Part shown: one piece after another, positions 21,723 through 35,938 of the stretch
How positions within the stretch are numbered: the stretch's first letter is position 1
Layout of the letters: each line of letters starts with the position of its first letter
Origin: Shigella phage SfIV
DNA: 39,758 nucleotides
Sequence record: KC814930
Reading direction: 5' to 3' (one strand)
Program-made: the position numbers and the translations under genes
Notes under the pieces: generated by a model
Told to the model about the DNA's origin: nothing
Seen by the model: only the letters and a program-made list of their open reading frames with translations
Database searches by the model: none

Positions 21723-22637
21723 TTATTTCTCTTTTAACAAGTAGCGAGGTCTCTGTTTAACTTCGGTATAAATCCGGCCAATGTACTCGCCCAAAACTCC
21801 GATACCAATGAGCTGCACACCACCGAGAAAAAGTATTGATACCAGCAATGATGGATAACCGCGCACAGGATTCCCGAATGCAAGCGTATCAATGATCATC
21901 CAGGCACCGTACAGGAAAGCCAGGCCTGCAACGAACAGGCCAATGTACGTCCACATGCGTAACGGAAATGTTGAGAAGCTGGTAATCCCTTCAAGCGCCA
22001 GGTTCCAGAGCTTCCAGCCATTAAACTTAGTGCTGCCAGCAACACGCTCAGCGCGAGCATATTCAACAACATCTGTACTCCCACCAACCCAGCTCAATAC
22101 TCCTTTCATGAACAGGTTGCGTTCTGGTAATAATTTAATGTTTTCCACAACTCCGCGAGACATTAGTCGGAAATCGCCGACGTTCTCCTCAATCTTTGGA
22201 TTGCTTATTTTATTGTGAAGTTTATAGAACCACTCAGCAGTCATGCGCTTCAGTCTTCCGTCTGTAGAACGGTCTGAGCGCTTAGCCAGTACCATATCAG
22301 CACCTGCCTGCCACTTTTCAATAAGATGAGGGATAACCTCAATCGGGTCCTGCAGATCGACATCAATAGGAATTACAGCATCGCCGCTTGCATGGTCTAA
22401 CCCTGCAAATAAGGCTGGTTCTTTACCAAAGTTGCGTGTAAATGACAGCGGAACAACTAGCGGGTCTGAAACAGCCAGCGCGTTAATAATTGACTCTGTG
22501 GCATCTTTACTTCCGTCATTTATGAATACAATTTCTACTTCATATGGCTTCAACTCTTGGAATTCACGTACCGTTTTATAGAAAACAGGTATCGCTTCTT
22601 CTTCATTGAAGACAGGAACGACAAGAGATATTTTCAT
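21723..22637 (-). CDS. gtrB: bactoprenol glucosyltransferase
   Basis: 304 aa; N-terminal GT2 features ([26 protein letters not shown]) and C-terminal TM helices. Confidence 0.85.
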
Positions 22638-24421: not shown

Positions 24422-24648
24422 TTTCTTTCCTCTGTTATGCCATCACCCGCGCTCACCTGGACAGTATGCAGCGGAGACTGAAGAGCCGCAATGCAGGCTT
24501 GTCGTGTTGTGAGGTAAGGAGATTTATTCTTAGTGGGATCTTTGCGTGTTGCCTGAAGACGCCCTGTGCGTATCCAGTTAATGGCAGTCGGTCTGGATAT
24601 CTTGAGAAAATGACAGGCCTCATCGAGTGTGAGGCTGTATGGCTCCAT
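24298..24648 (-). CDS. xis: excisionase-like HTH protein
   Basis: Internal ATG at 24648 gives [31 protein letters not shown], an excisionase-type HTH; overlaps the int 5' end. Boundaries uncertain. Confidence 0.55.
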
Positions 24649-24953
24649 TATTTCACCTCTTGCTGTGACATTGTTGAAAAATGGATACCAGCTCGTTGCT
24701 GCCAGACGATCCAACCGAGAGTCATATCCCATGCCATGTATTCGTTATCGCCGTTTTTTGCTCTCCGACGATCTACTAAGTCACCGAAACGCTTTTCCAT
24801 GAATAATTCATAAGCTTCGCGTTCATCTGGTTCTACTTCCAGAGATAGGAGTGCGATTTCATAAGCACGGCGCTCAATATCGTCTCGCACGTCAAGGCTG
24901 CTGATACGCTCTTTAATTTCTTTAATCAGTTCTTTGTCGGTAAAAGTGGTCAT
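24648..24953 (-). CDS. hypothetical early protein
   Basis: 101-aa ORF, in operon with neighbours on the minus strand. Confidence 0.45.
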   Translation of the reverse strand: MTTFTDKELIKEIKERISSLDVRDDIERRAYEIALLSLEVEPDEREAYELFMEKRFGDLVDRRRAKNGDNEYMAWDMTLGWIVWQQRAGIHFSTMSQQEVK

Positions 24954-25315
24954 TATGCTCCAGCCTCCGGTGCTTTTGGCATTACTGCCCAGTGAGTGAT
25001 ATTGACGTTTTCAAGGTCCCCGACCTGAAATGTCCACTGCCATTCTCCGGTTTCTTTTTGTCCCCAGGTGTACCAGAGAGAACGCCAGCCAATTAGCCAG
25101 CCTTCTCCGTTAGCATCGAATAACAAAACACTTTCATTTGCTGGTGGCAGTTCAGTTGACACTGGTATTACTTTGTTTTCCTGTGCTGCACATTTAGCTT
25201 CAAGCGCATCGAATTTACGCACCAGGTATTCAGCATCTGTTTCATTTACTTTCAGATCTCGCGGTACACATCTCCCACGAAGAAACCCTTCCATTTCGAA
25301 AACATTCATGCGCAT
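24953..25315 (-). CDS. hypothetical early protein
   Basis: 120-aa ORF, translationally coupled in the early-left operon. Confidence 0.45.
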   Translation of the reverse strand: MRMNVFEMEGFLRGRCVPRDLKVNETDAEYLVRKFDALEAKCAAQENKVIPVSTELPPANESVLLFDANGEGWLIGWRSLWYTWGQKETGEWQWTFQVGDLENVNITHWAVMPKAPEAGA

Positions 25316-25842
25316 TTGCGTAACTCCGATAACTCGTTAAAGCGTTCCATAAACATCCCGTAGGCATGGCCCGGTGCCAGTGGAATCACGTTGAACATCT
25401 CTGTTGCCGGGATACCTTCCAGTACAGGCCAGAAAGAGCCATCATCAAGCCCGAGATCGCGGCGTTCGGTTGCCAGCATGATGAGATCGGCATATTTCAC
25501 GGGCGTACTCATAACTGGGGGTAACCCGTATTTCTCACGGATTACGGCGTCTATTTTTTCTTCCATTTGTTTATAGTCAGGAAGAAGGCGTTTCAGTGGT
25601 GCGGGAATGTCCTGGCAATACGCTTCTGTTGCATCATGCATTAACGCTTCAAAAGCAAATTCCTGCGGCACCAACTGGCTGCAAAGAACCGCATGTTGGG
25701 CGACGCTGTAGAAGTGCGAAAGATGACCGGCAAAGCGACAGATATTTGAAAGGGAAACCGCGATATCGTTAATATCGATGTCGTCTTTATTTATCCTGTC
25801 ATAATAAAAATGCTTCCCGGAAAAAGTTTTAATAAATGACAT
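25306..25842 (-). CDS. HD-domain phosphohydrolase (YfdR-like)
   Basis: ATG at 25842 with SD ggag; contains H...HD metal-binding motifs (FAGHLSH..., ALMHDATEAY). Confidence 0.6.
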   Translation of the reverse strand: MSFIKTFSGKHFYYDRINKDDIDINDIAVSLSNICRFAGHLSHFYSVAQHAVLCSQLVPQEFAFEALMHDATEAYCQDIPAPLKRLLPDYKQMEEKIDAVIREKYGLPPVMSTPVKYADLIMLATERRDLGLDDGSFWPVLEGIPATEMFNVIPLAPGHAYGMFMERFNELSELRKCA

Positions 25843-25969
25843 TTTGTTCTCCACGTATATGCGCTGCACCGCGCTGAATTCTGGTAAAAAGAATCCCTCA
25901 CCATCCGGCGATTATTGAGTAAATTACGTTTCCATAAATGCCCCCGCAGGGGCATTTGCAGTAATGAAA

Positions 25970-26794
25970 TCAGGCGGTGAAAGTACCAATAAAGGTTTCT
26001 ACTTTGCTGTCCTTGAATTTCTCAACAAGCAGATCACGAAATTCGTTAGCCATTTCTTCCTGCACCGCCTCCAGCTGAATAATGCGCAGAACCAGTACAG
26101 GACGATCGCCAGTGATAATACTGAGGCGTAATTTAAACGGACGTTCTTTCAGACCTTCAAACGGAACGCATTTAAATTCAAATGCCACTGGCATAATGTC
26201 TTTGGTCTTCGCTTCGACAGACTCCATCAGGGAGCGTTTGCCGCTGAAGTCATTATCTTCAAAATCAGCGGTCTGGTTTGCTTCAATCGTGATTTTACGG
26301 ACAGCCGCAGCCGCTTTTGTTGCCTGAATAGCGTCACCATTAGCATCAAAGCCCACAAGATAGTCGGCCCAGTCTTCAATCCATTCTGCCAGTGACTTCT
26401 GGGAGTTACGCTCGCCGTTAACAGACAACAGAGCAGAGAACGGTGCTGTCTTTTTCAGTTTGAGTGTGGCGGTGTTATCTGCGTGACCTGGTTCATCAAT
26501 AGTACCCAGGTTAAGCACACTGACGGCACGCATATTATCAGCATCGATAAAGCAGCGGGTGCCTTCATCTGCAAGATCTTTAGAATAACGGGTAAAGTCA
26601 TCGATGCTGGCAGTGGAAAGCGCACCACGGAAACGGAAGCGATTTAAATTAAATTTTTCCAGATCATGAATGCGGAAATTCTCAGGCAATGCCACAGCAT
26701 CGGCACCAATCTTACTGATAATTTCATTAACACCCTGAGCAGAAATAAGGGCATGGATTTGATTAATTGCGGTTGCGTCTAAGTTCTGAGACAT
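25970..26794 (-). CDS. conserved prophage protein (YfdQ-like)
   Basis: 274-aa ORF with SD gagga upstream; recalled similarity to E. coli CPS-53 YfdQ, unverified. Confidence 0.5.
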
Positions 26795-28453: not shown

Positions 28454-28483
28454 TTGTTTCTCTTGGGTACATTATGTATCTCG
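28454..28483. promoter_or_regulatory. putative OL-type operator repeats
   Basis: Two copies of tgggtacatt (28454..28463, 28474..28483) sharing the GGTACA core with the palindromes between cI and cro. Confidence 0.4.
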
Positions 28484-28500
28484 TGGGTACATTGTCAAGT

Positions 28501-30098: not shown

Positions 30099-30433
30099 AC
30101 AGTTTAACAACACACTACCGTCGCTCGCAACTGATTGCGCTTCCTGTACCGGGTGGAAAAGCGAAGGTGGAGTATTGCTATGCAGTGAATGTACCAGGTG
30201 ACAGGGAAATTGTAACCCACAGCTTTGCAGAGTGGGCTGTGGGGGATTTCAACCGGCAGAAGGAGACAGTCCTTTGCGACAAGTTAATCGCTGGTTCAAA
30301 GATCACTACGGAGTGCCCGTCAGAGTCATTCGTTGGGAGCCGGAAACACAACGGGTTATCTACCTCCGTGAAGGCTATGAGCATGAGTGCTTCAGCCCGC
30401 TCGAACAGTTTCGTCGTAAATTCAGGGAAATAG
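30095..30433 (+). CDS. hypothetical protein (frame ambiguity with 30274..30453)
   Basis: ATGA-coupled to the upstream gene; a second frame (TTG at 30274 with strong SD aaggaga) encodes a more protein-like 59-aa product ending at 30453. Confidence 0.35.
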
Positions 30434-30442
30434 AGGTCGGTC

Positions 30443-31384
30443 ATGAGCACTAAATTAACCGGCTATGTATGGGATGGTTGCGCAGCGTCAGGCATGAAAT
30501 TATCCAGCGTGGCAATTATGGCCCGCCTGGCTGATTTCAGTAATGACGAAGGTGTGTGCTGGCCATCAATTGAAACCATTGCCCGTCAGATTGGCGCGGG
30601 GATGAGTACCGTCAGAACGGCTATCGCACGGCTGGAAGCAGAAGGCTGGTTAACGCGTAAGGCGCGTCGCCAGGGTAACCGCAATGCGTCGAATGTTTAT
30701 CAGCTTAACGTTGCGAAGCTTCAGGCAGCGGCATTTTCTCAACTGTCAGATTCTGACCCGTCAAAATCTGACGCATCAAAATCTGACCCGTCAAAATTTG
30801 ATGCGTCGAAATCTGGCAAAAAAGCGGGTTTTCACCCGTCAGAATCTGGCGGGGATCCGTCAGTAAAATCAAAACATGATCCGTCAGATAAAAAAACTTC
30901 TCGTCCGGACGCTTCGCAACCGGACACGCAGACGGCTGAACAGGAGTTTTTAACTCGCCATCCTGATGCGGTTGTATTCAGCCCTAAAAAGCGCCAGTGG
31001 GGAACGCAGGATGATTTGACCTGCGCACAGTGGCTCTGGAAAAAAATCATCGCCCTGTACGAGCAGGCCGCCGAATGTGACGGCGAGGTGGTTCGTCCCA
31101 AAGAACCGAACTGGACAGCCTGGGCAAACGAAATTCGCCTGATGTGTGTGCAGGATGGTCGTACTCACAAACAAATCTGCGAGATGTACAGCCGCGTCAG
31201 CCGCGATCCGTTCTGGTGCCGTAACGTGCTCAGCCCGTCGAAGCTGCGGGAAAAATGGGATGAGCTTTCCCTGCGCTTATCGCCGTCCGTCAGCACGTAC
31301 ACAGAAAAACGCGAAGACCCGTACTTCAAAGCCAGTTACGACAACGTGGACTACAGCCAGATCCCGGCAGGATTCAGGGGGTGA
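30443..31384 (+). CDS. replication initiator (lambda O-like, iteron-binding)
   Basis: 313 aa; N-terminal HTH-like region; central low-complexity segment (SDSDPSKSDASKSDPSKFDASKSG) encoded by the iteron repeats. Confidence 0.7.
   Translation: MSTKLTGYVWDGCAASGMKLSSVAIMARLADFSNDEGVCWPSIETIARQIGAGMSTVRTAIARLEAEGWLTRKARRQGNRNASNVYQLNVAKLQAAAFSQLSDSDPSKSDASKSDPSKFDASKSGKKAGFHPSESGGDPSVKSKHDPSDKKTSRPDASQPDTQTAEQEFLTRHPDAVVFSPKKRQWGTQDDLTCAQWLWKKIIALYEQAAECDGEVVRPKEPNWTAWANEIRLMCVQDGRTHKQICEMYSRVSRDPFWCRNVLSPSKLREKWDELSLRLSPSVSTYTEKREDPYFKASYDNVDYSQIPAGFRG
30743..30897 (+). repeat. iteron array (candidate origin of replication) inside the O-like gene
   Basis: At least six direct copies of a ~15-bp unit (gacccgtcaaaatct, gacgcatcaaaatct, gacccgtcaaaattt, gatgcgtcgaaatct, cacccgtcagaatct, gatccgtcag...), followed by an A-rich run. 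Confidence 0.7.
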
Positions 31385-31386
31385 TC

Positions 31387-31875
31387 ATGAGTCTTTTGAA
31401 TGAAGTTCAGAAATACATTGAAGCCCATCCGGGGTGTACTTCCGGAGACATTGCGGATGCTTTTGCAGGTTACTCACGGCAGCGCGTTCTGCAGTCAGCA
31501 AGCAAGTTACGTCAGAGTGGGCGTGTGGCTCACCGTTGTGAAGGGGATACACGCAGACATTTCCCGCGCCTGACTGAGAGAGCGCAGGAGGCGGAACCGC
31601 AACCAGTTCGTGAAACCAGACCTGTGCGCAATTTCTATGTCGGCACTAACGACCCGCGGGAGATTTTGTGCCTGACCCGCCAGGCTGAAGAACTGGAGTC
31701 CAGGGGCTTATACCGTCGTGCTGCAACGGTGTGGATGGCGGCATTCCGTGAAAGCCACTCCCAGCCAGAACGAAACAATTTTCTGGCGCGTCGTGAGCAG
31801 TGTTTACGGAAAAGCAGCAAGCGCGCTGTATCGAGTGATGAGTGGTATCTGTCAGGGAATTACGTGGGGGCGTAA
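31387..31875 (+). CDS. PerC-family transcriptional regulator-like protein
   Basis: ATG at 31387; C-terminal half carries GLYRRAATVWMAAF, resembling the PerC/Pch core motif as I recall it; occupies the lambda P position. Confidence 0.45.
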   Translation: MSLLNEVQKYIEAHPGCTSGDIADAFAGYSRQRVLQSASKLRQSGRVAHRCEGDTRRHFPRLTERAQEAEPQPVRETRPVRNFYVGTNDPREILCLTRQAEELESRGLYRRAATVWMAAFRESHSQPERNNFLARREQCLRKSSKRAVSSDEWYLSGNYVGA

Positions 31876-35240: not shown

Positions 35241-35516
35241 GTGGCTTCTGTTTCTATCAGCTGTCCCTCCTGTTCAGCTACTGACGGGGTGGTGCGTAAC
35301 GGCAAAAGCACCGCCGGACATCAGCGCTATCTCTGCTCTCACTGCCGTAAAACATGGCAACTGCAGTTCACTTACACCGCTTCTCAACCCGGTACGCACC
35401 AGAAAATCATTGATATGGCCATGAATGGCGTTGGATGCCGGGCAACAGCCCGCATTATGGGCGTTGGCCTCAACACGATTTTACGTCACTTAAAAAACTC
35501 AGGCCGCAGTCGGTAA
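35241..35516 (+). CDS. insA: IS1 InsA
   Basis: 91 aa, [43 protein letters not shown]... Confidence 0.9.
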
Positions 35517-35938
35517 CCTCGCGCATACAGCCGGGCAGTGACGTCATCGTCTGCGCGGAAATGGACGAACAGTGGGGCTATGTCGGGGCTAAATCGCGCC
35601 AGCGCTGGCTGTTTTACGCGTATGACAGTCTCCGGAAGACGGTTGTTGCGCACGTATTCGGTGAACGCACTATGGCGACGCTGGGGCGTCTTATGAGCCT
35701 GCTGTCACCCTTTGACGTGGTGATATGGATGACGGATGGCTGGCCGCTGTATGAATCCCGCCTGAAGGGAAAGCTGCACGTAATCAGCAAGCGATATACG
35801 CAGCGAATTGAGCGGCATAACCTAAATCTGAGGCAGCACCTGGCACGGCTGGGACGGAAGTCGCTGTCGTTCTCAAAATCGGTGGAGCTGCATGACAAAG
35901 TCATCGGGCATTATCTGAACATAAAACACTATCAATAA
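35435..35938 (+). CDS. insB: IS1 InsB frame (expressed as InsAB' by frameshift)
   Basis: 167-aa ORF overlapping the insA 3' end in the -1 frame. Confidence 0.9.

Follow-up and report, generated by a model that had tools for sequence, protein, structure and literature searches.

A candidate lambda-plan replication origin inside the initiator gene of Shigella phage SfIV

Results and discussion

The stretch of DNA analysed here, referred to below as the window, is the complete 39,758 base pair (bp) genome of Shigella phage SfIV (KC814930), an isolated temperate phage that converts the serotype of Shigella flexneri (PMC3851460). Within it, positions 30745-30899 lie inside rep, the gene for a replication initiator protein (Rep). 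The best explanation for this region as a whole is that it is the replication origin of the phage, laid out on the lambda plan, and on the comparative evidence we put the probability of this reading at about 0.85. The region combines an array of dyad-symmetric repeats (iterons) with an AT-rich tract directly downstream, and the repeats, judged by comparison, are almost certainly the initiator binding sites of the origin of this phage. A first-pass annotation had proposed a candidate ori at this place, and comparison supports the proposal through conservation at synonymous sites, covariation of the repeats with the DNA-binding domain of Rep, and the lambda-like position of the array and the tract. 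The array and the minimum in GC content fall where lambda O has its iterons and its AT-rich tract, which supports the origin reading. That the repeats encode a linker predicted to be disordered, and that their number varies from 1 to about 10, is a further argument for selection on the DNA.

The iteron array

Six 13-bp units with the consensus GTCA(A/G)AATCTGAC lie between 30745 and 30850, each a core with 6+1+6 dyad symmetry (Table 1). Iterons 1 to 5 follow one another at a 15-bp pitch, and iteron 6 sits 33 bp beyond iteron 5. Positions 30743-30897 read CTGTCAGATTCTGAC CCGTCAAAATCTGAC GCATCAAAATCTGAC CCGTCAAAATTTGAT GCGTCGAAATCTGGC, an 18-nucleotide (nt) spacer and CCGTCAGAATCTGGC, followed by GGG GATCCGTCAGTAAAA TCAAAACAT GATCCGTCAGATAAA AAAAC. 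Two half-units, GATCCGTCAG, begin at 30854 and 30878, downstream of the six full units, and the earlier count of six or seven repeats of about 15 bp was a fair one, given six full units and two partial ones. A repeat search and Tandem Repeats Finder (TRF) placed the 15-bp period over 30743-30817 with a further copy at 30836-30850. TRF reported 4.3 copies with 81% matches at 30752-30815, and a 30-bp super-period scored higher (88%).

The array is confined to this locus. With up to three mismatches allowed, the consensus CCGTCAAAATCTGAC gave 8 matches in the window, all within 30743-30852; in shuffled sequences the mean was 1.34 and the highest count 5, and none of 100 reached 8. These matches represent only six sites because the unit is palindromic, two of the sites matching on the minus strand as well. 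TRF found just one other tandem array in the whole window, two copies of the 20-mer TGTATCTCGTGGGTACATTA at 28455-28493, directly 3' of the cI-like repressor gene.

These observations bear on the possibility that the units are Rep sites for autoregulation, copy-number control or incompatibility and that the true origin lies elsewhere. Plasmid iterons do have such roles, and sites within the initiator's own gene could block its transcription. However, the motif is found nowhere else in the window, the only other tandem repeat is the pair of 20-bp copies beside cI, the local GC minimum directly follows the array as in lambda, and the layout is positionally equal to the experimentally defined origins of lambda and the Shiga toxin (Stx) phages (PMC7466680). 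A purely regulatory role is thus improbable.

The array occupies nt 301-410 of the gene, inside the open reading frame (ORF) 30443-31384 and between the codons for the N-terminal and C-terminal domains, and it encodes amino acids 101-152 of Rep (SDSDPSKSDASKSDPSKFDASKSG...). One 15-bp step is five codons long, and the array therefore doubles as coding sequence for a flexible (D-P/A-S-K-S)n linker that is tolerant of changes in unit number. The 33-bp offset of the last iteron recurs in SfII, phiNP and the relative P0077, and in P0097 with a different iteron sequence; Kp4873 has one additional tandem unit ahead of the offset iteron.

Several other features of the region were considered. Shuffled sequences fold far less well than the two origin strands do when single (z = -5.2 and -4.7), and this hairpin potential was dropped as independent evidence: it is real, yet an automatic consequence of tandem palindromes. 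Extra CCGTCAGA half-sites at 30317, 30583 and 30609, candidates for accessory Rep sites, are not conserved in homologues and were rejected. The 33-bp spacer that separates iterons 5 and 6 contains a terminator-like hairpin on the minus strand at 30825-30838, CGGGTGAAAACCCG followed by a T6 run; neither Kp4873 nor phiNP conserves it, and it is probably a chance match. A scan for sigma-70 promoters detected no internal promoter in the origin.

Evidence for selection on the DNA of the repeats

The repeats were compared with those of four homologues, from Klebsiella phage Kp4873-4 (73% amino acid identity), Citrobacter phage phiNP, Escherichia phage Eeyore and phage EKP1. Across the N-terminal domain, where amino acid identity is 63-88%, identical residues use the same codon in 43, 48, 34 and 37% of cases in the four homologues, so that synonymous sites there (34-48% same codon) are near saturation. 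In the repeat region amino acid identity is 56-85%, and the corresponding values are 87, 95, 83 and 72% (Fisher p = 3e-6, 3e-8, 2e-6 and 3e-3 for repeats versus N-terminal domain). Nucleotide identity in the repeats also exceeds amino acid identity. Conserved synonymous sites together with this excess are the opposite of a purely protein-level constraint.

A profile built from 31 units, with the consensus (C/G)CG TCA (A/G)AA TCT GAC, gave the same picture. Third-codon positions are no less informative than first and second positions, the Ser codons of the unit are fixed as TCA and TCT, and variation is greatest at the Pro/Ala codon between the cores, where changes are non-synonymous, and at the last base of the Asp codon. 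These patterns support the view that the repeats are under selection as DNA, as far as sequence conservation can indicate it.

The same data speak to the simplest competing account, in which the repeats are a mere low-complexity protein linker generated by replication slippage and have no function as DNA. The encoded segment is indeed predicted to be disordered, and the number of units is polymorphic, as expected of slippage-prone repeats: among near-identical rep genes it ranges from none or one to about 10 in whole steps of five amino acids (P0006, P0008, P0015, P0017, P0019 and P0047). A linker alone, however, would not keep its synonymous sites while flanking ones approach saturation, nor have an amino acid identity below its nucleotide identity, a non-synonymous Pro/Ala codon as its variable position and Ser codons fixed as TCA and TCT. 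The units are, moreover, dyad-symmetric, and their sequence changes with the DNA-binding domain. We consider the linker-only account very improbable. Some rep variants carry a deletion that runs from unit 1 to unit 6, and these may belong to dead prophages.

Conservation of the DNA could also come from a real overlapping gene, either at 30684-30866 on the plus strand or at 30705-30872 on the minus strand, both frames being free of stops across the repeats here and also in several homologues. The plus-strand frame, which had been called spurious from the start, has a stop codon in its start region in phiNP and another inside the repeats in EKP1, and the minus-strand frames are broken in several homologues. 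The plus-strand frame is open simply because the repeat unit has no stop codon in it. An overlapping gene deserves almost no weight, and 30684-30866 was rejected as one.

One member of the comparison set is unusual in its own right. Phage EKP1 (L005 2316-5375), labelled as infecting Elizabethkingia, combines an enterobacterial-style DUF4222 gene with an HTH_36 rep that has the same iteron family, followed by a toprim-domain protein. This makes either the stated host or the past of the module look odd.

Covariation of the iterons with the N-terminal domain

If the repeats are binding sites for Rep, their sequence should follow its DNA-binding domain, and this is what was found. Homologues with an N-terminal domain of the SfIV type have an array that starts at gene nt 303. 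The spacing of 15, 15, 15, 15 and 33 bp is exact in SfII and phiNP, and in Kp4873 and P0077 the layout is the same but the tandem units are more numerous. Other types of N-terminal domain come with other iterons at the same place: TCCAGAAnCTGRA units spaced 15, 15, 15 and 33 bp in the P0097 type, TCAAnnnnTTGA units in the P0101 type, and GTGCAnnnnnTTCAC units in the SfV type (SfV orf39). In P0118, whose N-terminal domain is unrelated, GGTCAAARTG recurs at a spacing of about 23 bp and is followed by AT-rich 12-bp repeats, again at the same place. Five types of N-terminal domain thus correspond to five iteron families at one site, and the SfIV-type motif has 0-1 matches in the other types. As a control, the same repeat search recovered the four annotated iterons of lambda.

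The C-terminal module does not show this correspondence. Three of the variant N-terminal types are joined to the same lambda-O-type C-terminal domain, and phiNP and Eeyore join the SfIV-type N-terminal domain and repeats to a different one (Phg_2220_C/TIGR02220). Because the repeats track the N-terminal domain and not the C-terminal module, the N-terminal domain and the iterons are inherited as one cassette. Exchange of such a cassette independently of the C-terminal module is classical behaviour of lambdoid origins.

The AT-rich tract and its GATC sites

Directly after the array lies the A-rich tract that the first-pass annotation had described. The 40-nt window at 30860-30899 has a GC content of 27.5%, the lowest between 30300 and 31500, and an A7 run occupies 30890-30896. 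The tract contains two 15-mers, GATCCGTCAG(T/A)(A/T)AAA, at 30854-30868 and 30878-30892, 24 bp apart, and this segment is kept even in homologues with different iterons (P0097 and P0101). In most homologues of the same type the gene-wide GC minimum falls directly downstream of the array, and in lambda O it falls at the equivalent place (gene nt 418 in SfIV rep versus 436 in lambda O).

Both 15-mers begin with a Dam site, GATC, which arises where an Asp-Pro pair is encoded with GAT as its Asp codon. The Asp codons were scored by a script under a simple rule, the last two Asp-Pro sites of each gene, over 14 lineages that included those with different iterons. At the Asp-Pro sites in the tract the Asp codon is GAT, giving GATC, in 26 of 28 cases (14 lineages), whereas GAC is used at 20 of the 21 Asp-Pro sites within the tandem array (Fisher p = 1.6e-10); the three exceptions in the GATC scoring (Eeyore, P0075) are on inspection artefacts of the rule. 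The use of GAT in the tract and GAC in the array across lineages indicates that the two Dam sites are maintained by synonymous codon choice. This suggests that methylation may matter here and that Dam or SeqA could control the phage origin. Comparable cases are oriC, which has GATC in its 13-mers, and P1 oriR, which has GATC repeats; in both, these sites are functionally important in the unwinding region. In many relatives a Dam methylase gene is among the genes right after rep or P.

The Rep protein and its gene

Rep matched phrog_391, "replication initiation O-like", at 1.6e-135, and its N-terminal domain belongs to HTH_36 (Pfam 4e-11). Amino acids 131-277 share 35% identity with lambda O in its C-terminal domain (tblastn 4e-18), in an alignment that starts at lambda iteron 4, and an alignment of lambda-O-type C-terminal domains that included lambda O had 28 invariant columns. 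These matches bear out the O-like label that the gene had been given. The N-terminal part had no match to Phage_rep_O or TIGR01610, the latter of which lambda O matches at 5e-39. The RefSeq label of the product is only "helix-turn-helix domain-containing protein".

An AlphaFold2 model, built on 32 homologues, predicts a winged-helix N-terminal domain at amino acids 1-101 (predicted local distance difference test, pLDDT, about 80), a disordered linker at 102-161 (pLDDT <50), a helical lambda-O-type C-terminal domain at 163-280 (pLDDT 85-92) and a low-confidence tail, predicted to be disordered, at 284-313. The predicted linker agrees with the earlier view that the repeats encode a low-complexity segment of the protein. 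In Foldseek searches the N-terminal domain resembled dimeric winged-helix proteins of the MarR/ArsR type, a resemblance consistent with palindromic binding sites. All of the top 50 Foldseek matches fitted this domain and none fell on the C-terminal domain. For the latter, no Pfam model was found, and sequence profiles gave no PDB match at E up to 10.

The gene sits in a cro-cII-rep early operon, and 1,576 of 5,426 complete E. coli genomes carry it. It is also present in the Shigella serotype-converting phage SfII, whereas in SfV and the Stx "Eru6" phages the similarity is limited to its 3' end and the downstream block. The right half of the window is about 95% identical in nucleotide sequence to SfV and SfII over 56-61% of the query. 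The SfIV replication module has been described as lacking the methylase of SfII and SfV (PMC3851460), and the same was seen in the window. The last 76 bp of rep (31309-31384) are 97-99% identical in SfV, mEp460, Ayreon and Stx2a_WGPS2 ("Eru6"), in which rep is otherwise different, and this points to a sharp recombination boundary inside rep. The downstream gene block (31387-31875) is at the same coordinates in SfV, Ayreon and Stx2a_1447.

Absence of a helicase loader

In lambda, O is followed by the P gene. In SfIV that position is taken by a PerC-family gene, as the first-pass annotation had noted in reporting no helicase or loader gene after rep. Searches with PHROGs and Pfam found no helicase, primase or loader in either early arm of the window, and tblastn against all six frames of the window with lambda P, a P homologue, E. 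coli DnaC, Rac YdaV and a prophage DnaC-like protein returned nothing below E = 0.1. These searches turned up no P-, DnaC- or YdaV-like gene hidden at another place, and the window has no P, DnaC or DnaB gene. Because the window is a complete genome, the absence of a loader holds genome-wide, and in a functional, isolated phage.

The PerC-like product is transcription-factor-like and not a loader. As an analogue of P it was rejected as an obligatory partner, being absent from several relatives. The gene that follows rep is Dam in Klebsiella Kp4873, a methyltransferase or a 3'-phosphoadenosine 5'-phosphosulfate (PAPS) reductase gene in phiNP and Eeyore, a DUF1627 gene in P0097 and a ParB-like gene in P0077 and P0075, and in P0085 it is likewise not PerC. 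In the relatives P0045, P0068, P0100 and P0104, all with the SfIV-type N-terminal domain, a true lambda P homologue (PF06992) directly follows. That initiators with the same N-terminal domain and iterons can be followed by lambda P implies that Rep plays the role of O.

The C-terminal tail of Rep

Rep ends in SQIPAGFRG, and E. coli DnaT ends in SQIPPGFRG (8 of 9 residues identical, within ..NTVSEPDSQIPPGFRG) and Rac YdaU in SAIPPGFRG. The codons concerned are 31355-31381 (+) in the window, L015:3451-3477 and L026:2979-3005 (-). The gene dnaT lies directly upstream of dnaC in the same orientation, the two being reported in the same operon (PMC13377028), and Rac ydaU lies directly upstream of the gene for the DnaC-type loader YdaV. 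With hhalign, only the last 17 residues of Rep and DnaT aligned (E = 3e-4, probability 39%). Homology between the globular C-terminal domains of Rep and DnaT was rejected on this result, and K-12 Rac YdaU, which would have linked the family to oriJ, is an unrelated DUF1376 protein with only the tail in common. Loss of residues 154-179 from DnaT affected cooperative binding to single-stranded DNA only modestly, and no other function for them was noticed in that study (PMC4132743).

Tail type follows the presence of P among the relatives. Where the initiator ends in a Trp-acidic tail (..NTDWIYGVDL, ..NTDWAYGVIR or ..HWNSPEGWETVL), a P homologue comes next in 9 of 9 cases: lambda, 4A7, phi80, Eho59, Brookers, P0045, P0068, P0100 and P0104, with Brookers gp50 counted as P on its annotation only, "putative DNA replication protein". 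Four of these nine initiators have the SfIV-type N-terminal domain, and three (P0045, P0068 and P0100) the SfIV-type iteron array. Where the tail is ..(I/L)P-x-GFR-x, P comes next in 0 of 13; two of the 13 are followed by a DnaC-like AAA+ gene (P0101 and K-12 Rac YdaU/YdaV) and the other 11 by nothing recognisable as a loader. Over the 22 initiators the association gives a Fisher p of 2e-6, uncorrected for kinship, and tail type separates P-dependent from P-less relatives perfectly despite their common globular C-terminal domain.

C-terminal architectures of at least four unrelated kinds carry the GFRG tail (lambda-O-type, Phg_2220_C, SfV-type and DUF1376), and the codons of the tail vary by lineage (AGG, CGC or AGA for Arg; GGA, GGG or GGC for Gly), which argues for a peptide motif and not a shared DNA junction. 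Our working hypothesis is that a DnaC-type loader, or the DnaB-DnaC complex, docks on the Rep tail, and that phages of the SfIV type would use that of the host. A broader proposal, tentative and in our estimate clearly short of even, is that ..IPxGFRG is a portable docking motif for DnaB-DnaC, common to DnaT, YdaU and many phage initiators of unrelated fold, and that a swap to a Trp-acidic tail turns a host-loader-dependent cassette into a P-dependent one. A Rac-like prophage in a ydaS-ydaT context (L012:3001-4701) has an HTH_36/lambda-O-type rep ending in ..EIPPGFRG with a DnaC-like AAA+ gene directly downstream, and it is a natural intermediate between the loader-less and the YdaU-YdaV designs.

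The origin may also be correctly placed and the helicase yet arrive by another route than the GFRG tail and DnaC. Rep might contact DnaB directly through its lambda-O-type domain, as plasmid iteron initiators contact DnaB directly; a PriA/PriB/DnaT pathway might start from hairpins of the iteron strands or from an R-loop left by early transcription, which would suit the strong folding of the origin single strands; or a phage loader might have gone unrecognised among the several early ORFs of no known function. The yfdQRST-like cluster of the phage can be counted on the same side, K-12 YfdR being reported to bind DnaA and to block its interaction with DnaB (PMC4776307). Set against this, the hairpin stability follows automatically from tandem palindromes, the gene beside rep is not conserved among relatives, and tail type sorts P-dependent from P-less relatives perfectly although they share the globular domain. 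We give such a route a nearly even chance.

The cluster itself, similar to yfdT, yfdS, yfdR and yfdQ, lies at 24648-26794 on the minus strand in the leftward early operon and includes a DUF2303 match at 2e-92 and a YfbR-like HD 5'-nucleotidase. Through it the phage may shut off host initiation.

Comparison with known systems

The closest parallel is ori-lambda, as known from lambda O and the Stx phages, where O forms the O-some and P recruits DnaB. In both designs the middle of the initiator gene contains the origin, in linker codons between the DNA-binding and C-terminal domains (the lambda iterons are at gene nt 349-433), the iterons are dyad-symmetric with an AT-rich tract directly downstream, the C-terminal domains are homologous (35% identity), and the gene belongs to the cro-cII-rep early operon (PMC7466680). 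Iteron number varies there too, from four in lambda to six in Stx phages (PMC7466680), which parallels the variation in unit number in rep. Unlike lambda O, Rep has an HTH_36 N-terminal domain instead of Phage_rep_O/TIGR01610, its sites are 13 bp at a 15-bp pitch instead of about 19 bp at 20-24 bp, its AT-rich tract has two conserved GATC sites, no P gene is present, and the tail is IPAGFRG instead of NTDWIYGVDL. SfIV therefore has the position, iterons, AT-rich tract, covariation and C-terminal domain of the lambda plan and departs from an O-P module in its N-terminal family and in lacking P. Phage phi80 is similar in that four gp15-binding sites are annotated inside its gene 15 (GenBank record) and the C-terminal domain of gp15, also lambda-O-type, is 35% identical to that of Rep; it differs in having a P-like gp14 and a Trp-acidic tail, ..NTDWAYGVIR.

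Iteron plasmids (pSC101 RepA, R6K pi, F RepE, RK2 TrfA) and P1 oriR resemble SfIV in using a single winged-helix initiator, tandem iterons beside an AT-rich DNA-unwinding element and the host DnaB and DnaC, with no loader of their own. HTH_36 Rep proteins with iterons have reportedly been described for Paracoccus plasmids. In contrast to SfIV, where no DnaA box is nearby, these origins lie outside rep and usually need DnaA boxes, and the C-terminal domain of SfIV Rep is lambda-O-type. The DnaT-DnaC and YdaU-YdaV pairs share the extreme C-terminal peptide with Rep, but their globular domains are unrelated to it, and SfIV has no DnaC-like gene beside rep. DnaT is the proposed recruiter of DnaB/DnaC, by a mechanism that the 2026 preprimosome structure paper describes as still unknown (PMC13377028, PMC4132743).

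The "Eru" regions of Stx phages are directly related. Stx2a_WGPS2, the Eru6 representative, shares the rep 3' end, and the close relative Stx2a_1447 the downstream block. The replication regions Eru5, 6, 8, 11 and 13 are built around HTH_36 proteins (PMC8951638). The papers on these regions class the HTH_36 modules, that of Stx2a_WGPS2 included, as non-lambdoid with an unknown replication mechanism and do not mention iterons. Our comparison shows the HTH_36 modules of the Eru type to be putative lambda-plan origins with a swapped DNA-binding domain.

Proposed mechanism and points that weigh against it

By analogy with lambda, Rep would be made from the rightward early operon, and transcription through rep would also cross the origin and may activate it. 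The comparison strongly implies that the winged-helix N-terminal domain recognises the six dyad-symmetric 13-bp sites. Rep dimers would fill the array, and the resulting complex would melt the AT-rich tract at 30853-30899; more speculatively, Dam and SeqA could exert control through the two GATC sites in the tract. In the most speculative step, the disordered tail (..DYSQIPAGFRG) would recruit the DnaB-DnaC complex of the host, relatives with a Trp-acidic tail using P for this purpose. Help from the yfdQRST-like cluster is a further speculation.

Several points weigh against this picture. The case for an origin comes from comparison, and no experiment on binding, unwinding or replication was found for SfIV or a close relative. 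With regard to host accessory factors, no DnaA box lies near the origin (TTWTNCACA occurs in the window only at 22141 and 34353), and no IHF consensus was found near it. At a 15-bp pitch neighbouring sites lie on nearly opposite faces of the helix, as against about two turns in lambda, so the complex need not resemble the lambda O-some. Tandem repeats that arose recently can look conserved, and the lineages compared are not phylogenetically independent, which makes the p-values optimistic. The relatives P0017 and P0019 keep one tandem unit or none, and these may be dead prophages.

The role given to the tail meets objections of its own. In some phages AGGGGG, encoding Arg-Gly, doubles as the ribosome-binding site of the next gene, and the link between tail and loader is a correlation over 22 cases. 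A 2026 structure paper on DnaT favours its N-terminal domain for the recruitment of DnaB/DnaC (PMC13377028).

Features of the region

The features of the replication region are collected in Table 1. Further along, between the Q-like antiterminator and the lysis genes, positions 35435-35938 on the plus strand match the transposase phrog_720 at 4e-79 and may be an insertion-sequence remnant.

Table 1. Features in and around rep, with positions in the window
Feature	Position	Strand	Sequence or size	Remarks
rep	30443..31384	+	313 aa (amino acids)	Replication initiator; ORF, Pfam, phrog_391, lambda O similarity, AlphaFold2
Alternative-frame ORF	30684..30866	+	60 aa	Spurious
Iteron 1	30745..30757		GTCAGATTCTGAC	Perfect 6+1+6 palindrome
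Iteron 2	30760..30772		GTCAAAATCTGAC	
Iteron 3	30775..30787		ATCAAAATCTGAC	
Iteron 4	30790..30802		GTCAAAATTTGAT	
Iteron 5	30805..30817		GTCGAAATCTGGC	
Iteron 6	30838..30850		GTCAGAATCTGGC	33-bp offset from iteron 5
Candidate DNA-unwinding element	30853..30899		72% A+T	GC minimum, repeated 15-mers, unpaired in single-strand folds
Dam site no. 1	30854..30857		GATC	Conserved; codons GAT CCG
Dam site no. 2	30878..30881		GATC	Conserved; 24 bp from no. 1
Tail codons	31355..31381	+	SQIPAGFRG	Last nine Rep residues; candidate docking peptide for a DnaC-type loader
PerC-family (yfdN-like) gene	31387..31875	+		Pfam PerC 7e-10, phrog_1324, RefSeq yfdN; lambda P position

Conclusions

An origin inside the initiator gene is textbook lambda biology, and in this respect the core concept is ordinary. 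We found no description of the SfIV-type origin in the searchable literature, and the SfI and SfIV genome papers are silent on it; the SfV genome paper (Allison et al. 2002) lay outside our survey and may mention the repeats of SfV orf39. What is new is the rule that links tail type to the P gene, the tail shared with DnaT, and the two codon-kept GATC sites, which suggest Dam/SeqA control of a phage origin.

For phages with HTH_36 initiators, a lambda-plan origin with a swapped DNA-binding domain gives a concrete and testable origin and initiator. The family is a natural domain-swap series: the cassette of iterons and N-terminal domain stays the same, while the loader may be P, a DnaC-like protein or absent altogether. 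Such a series lends itself well to studies of loader choice by an initiator. In replication restart, the tail that Rep and DnaT have in common gives an unanswered question a specific hypothesis. If the docking motif is real, phages of the SfIV type would be replicons on the lambda plan in which one phage protein, by mimicking DnaT, is enough for firing, and the motif would be a pointer to how DnaT recruits DnaB/DnaC.

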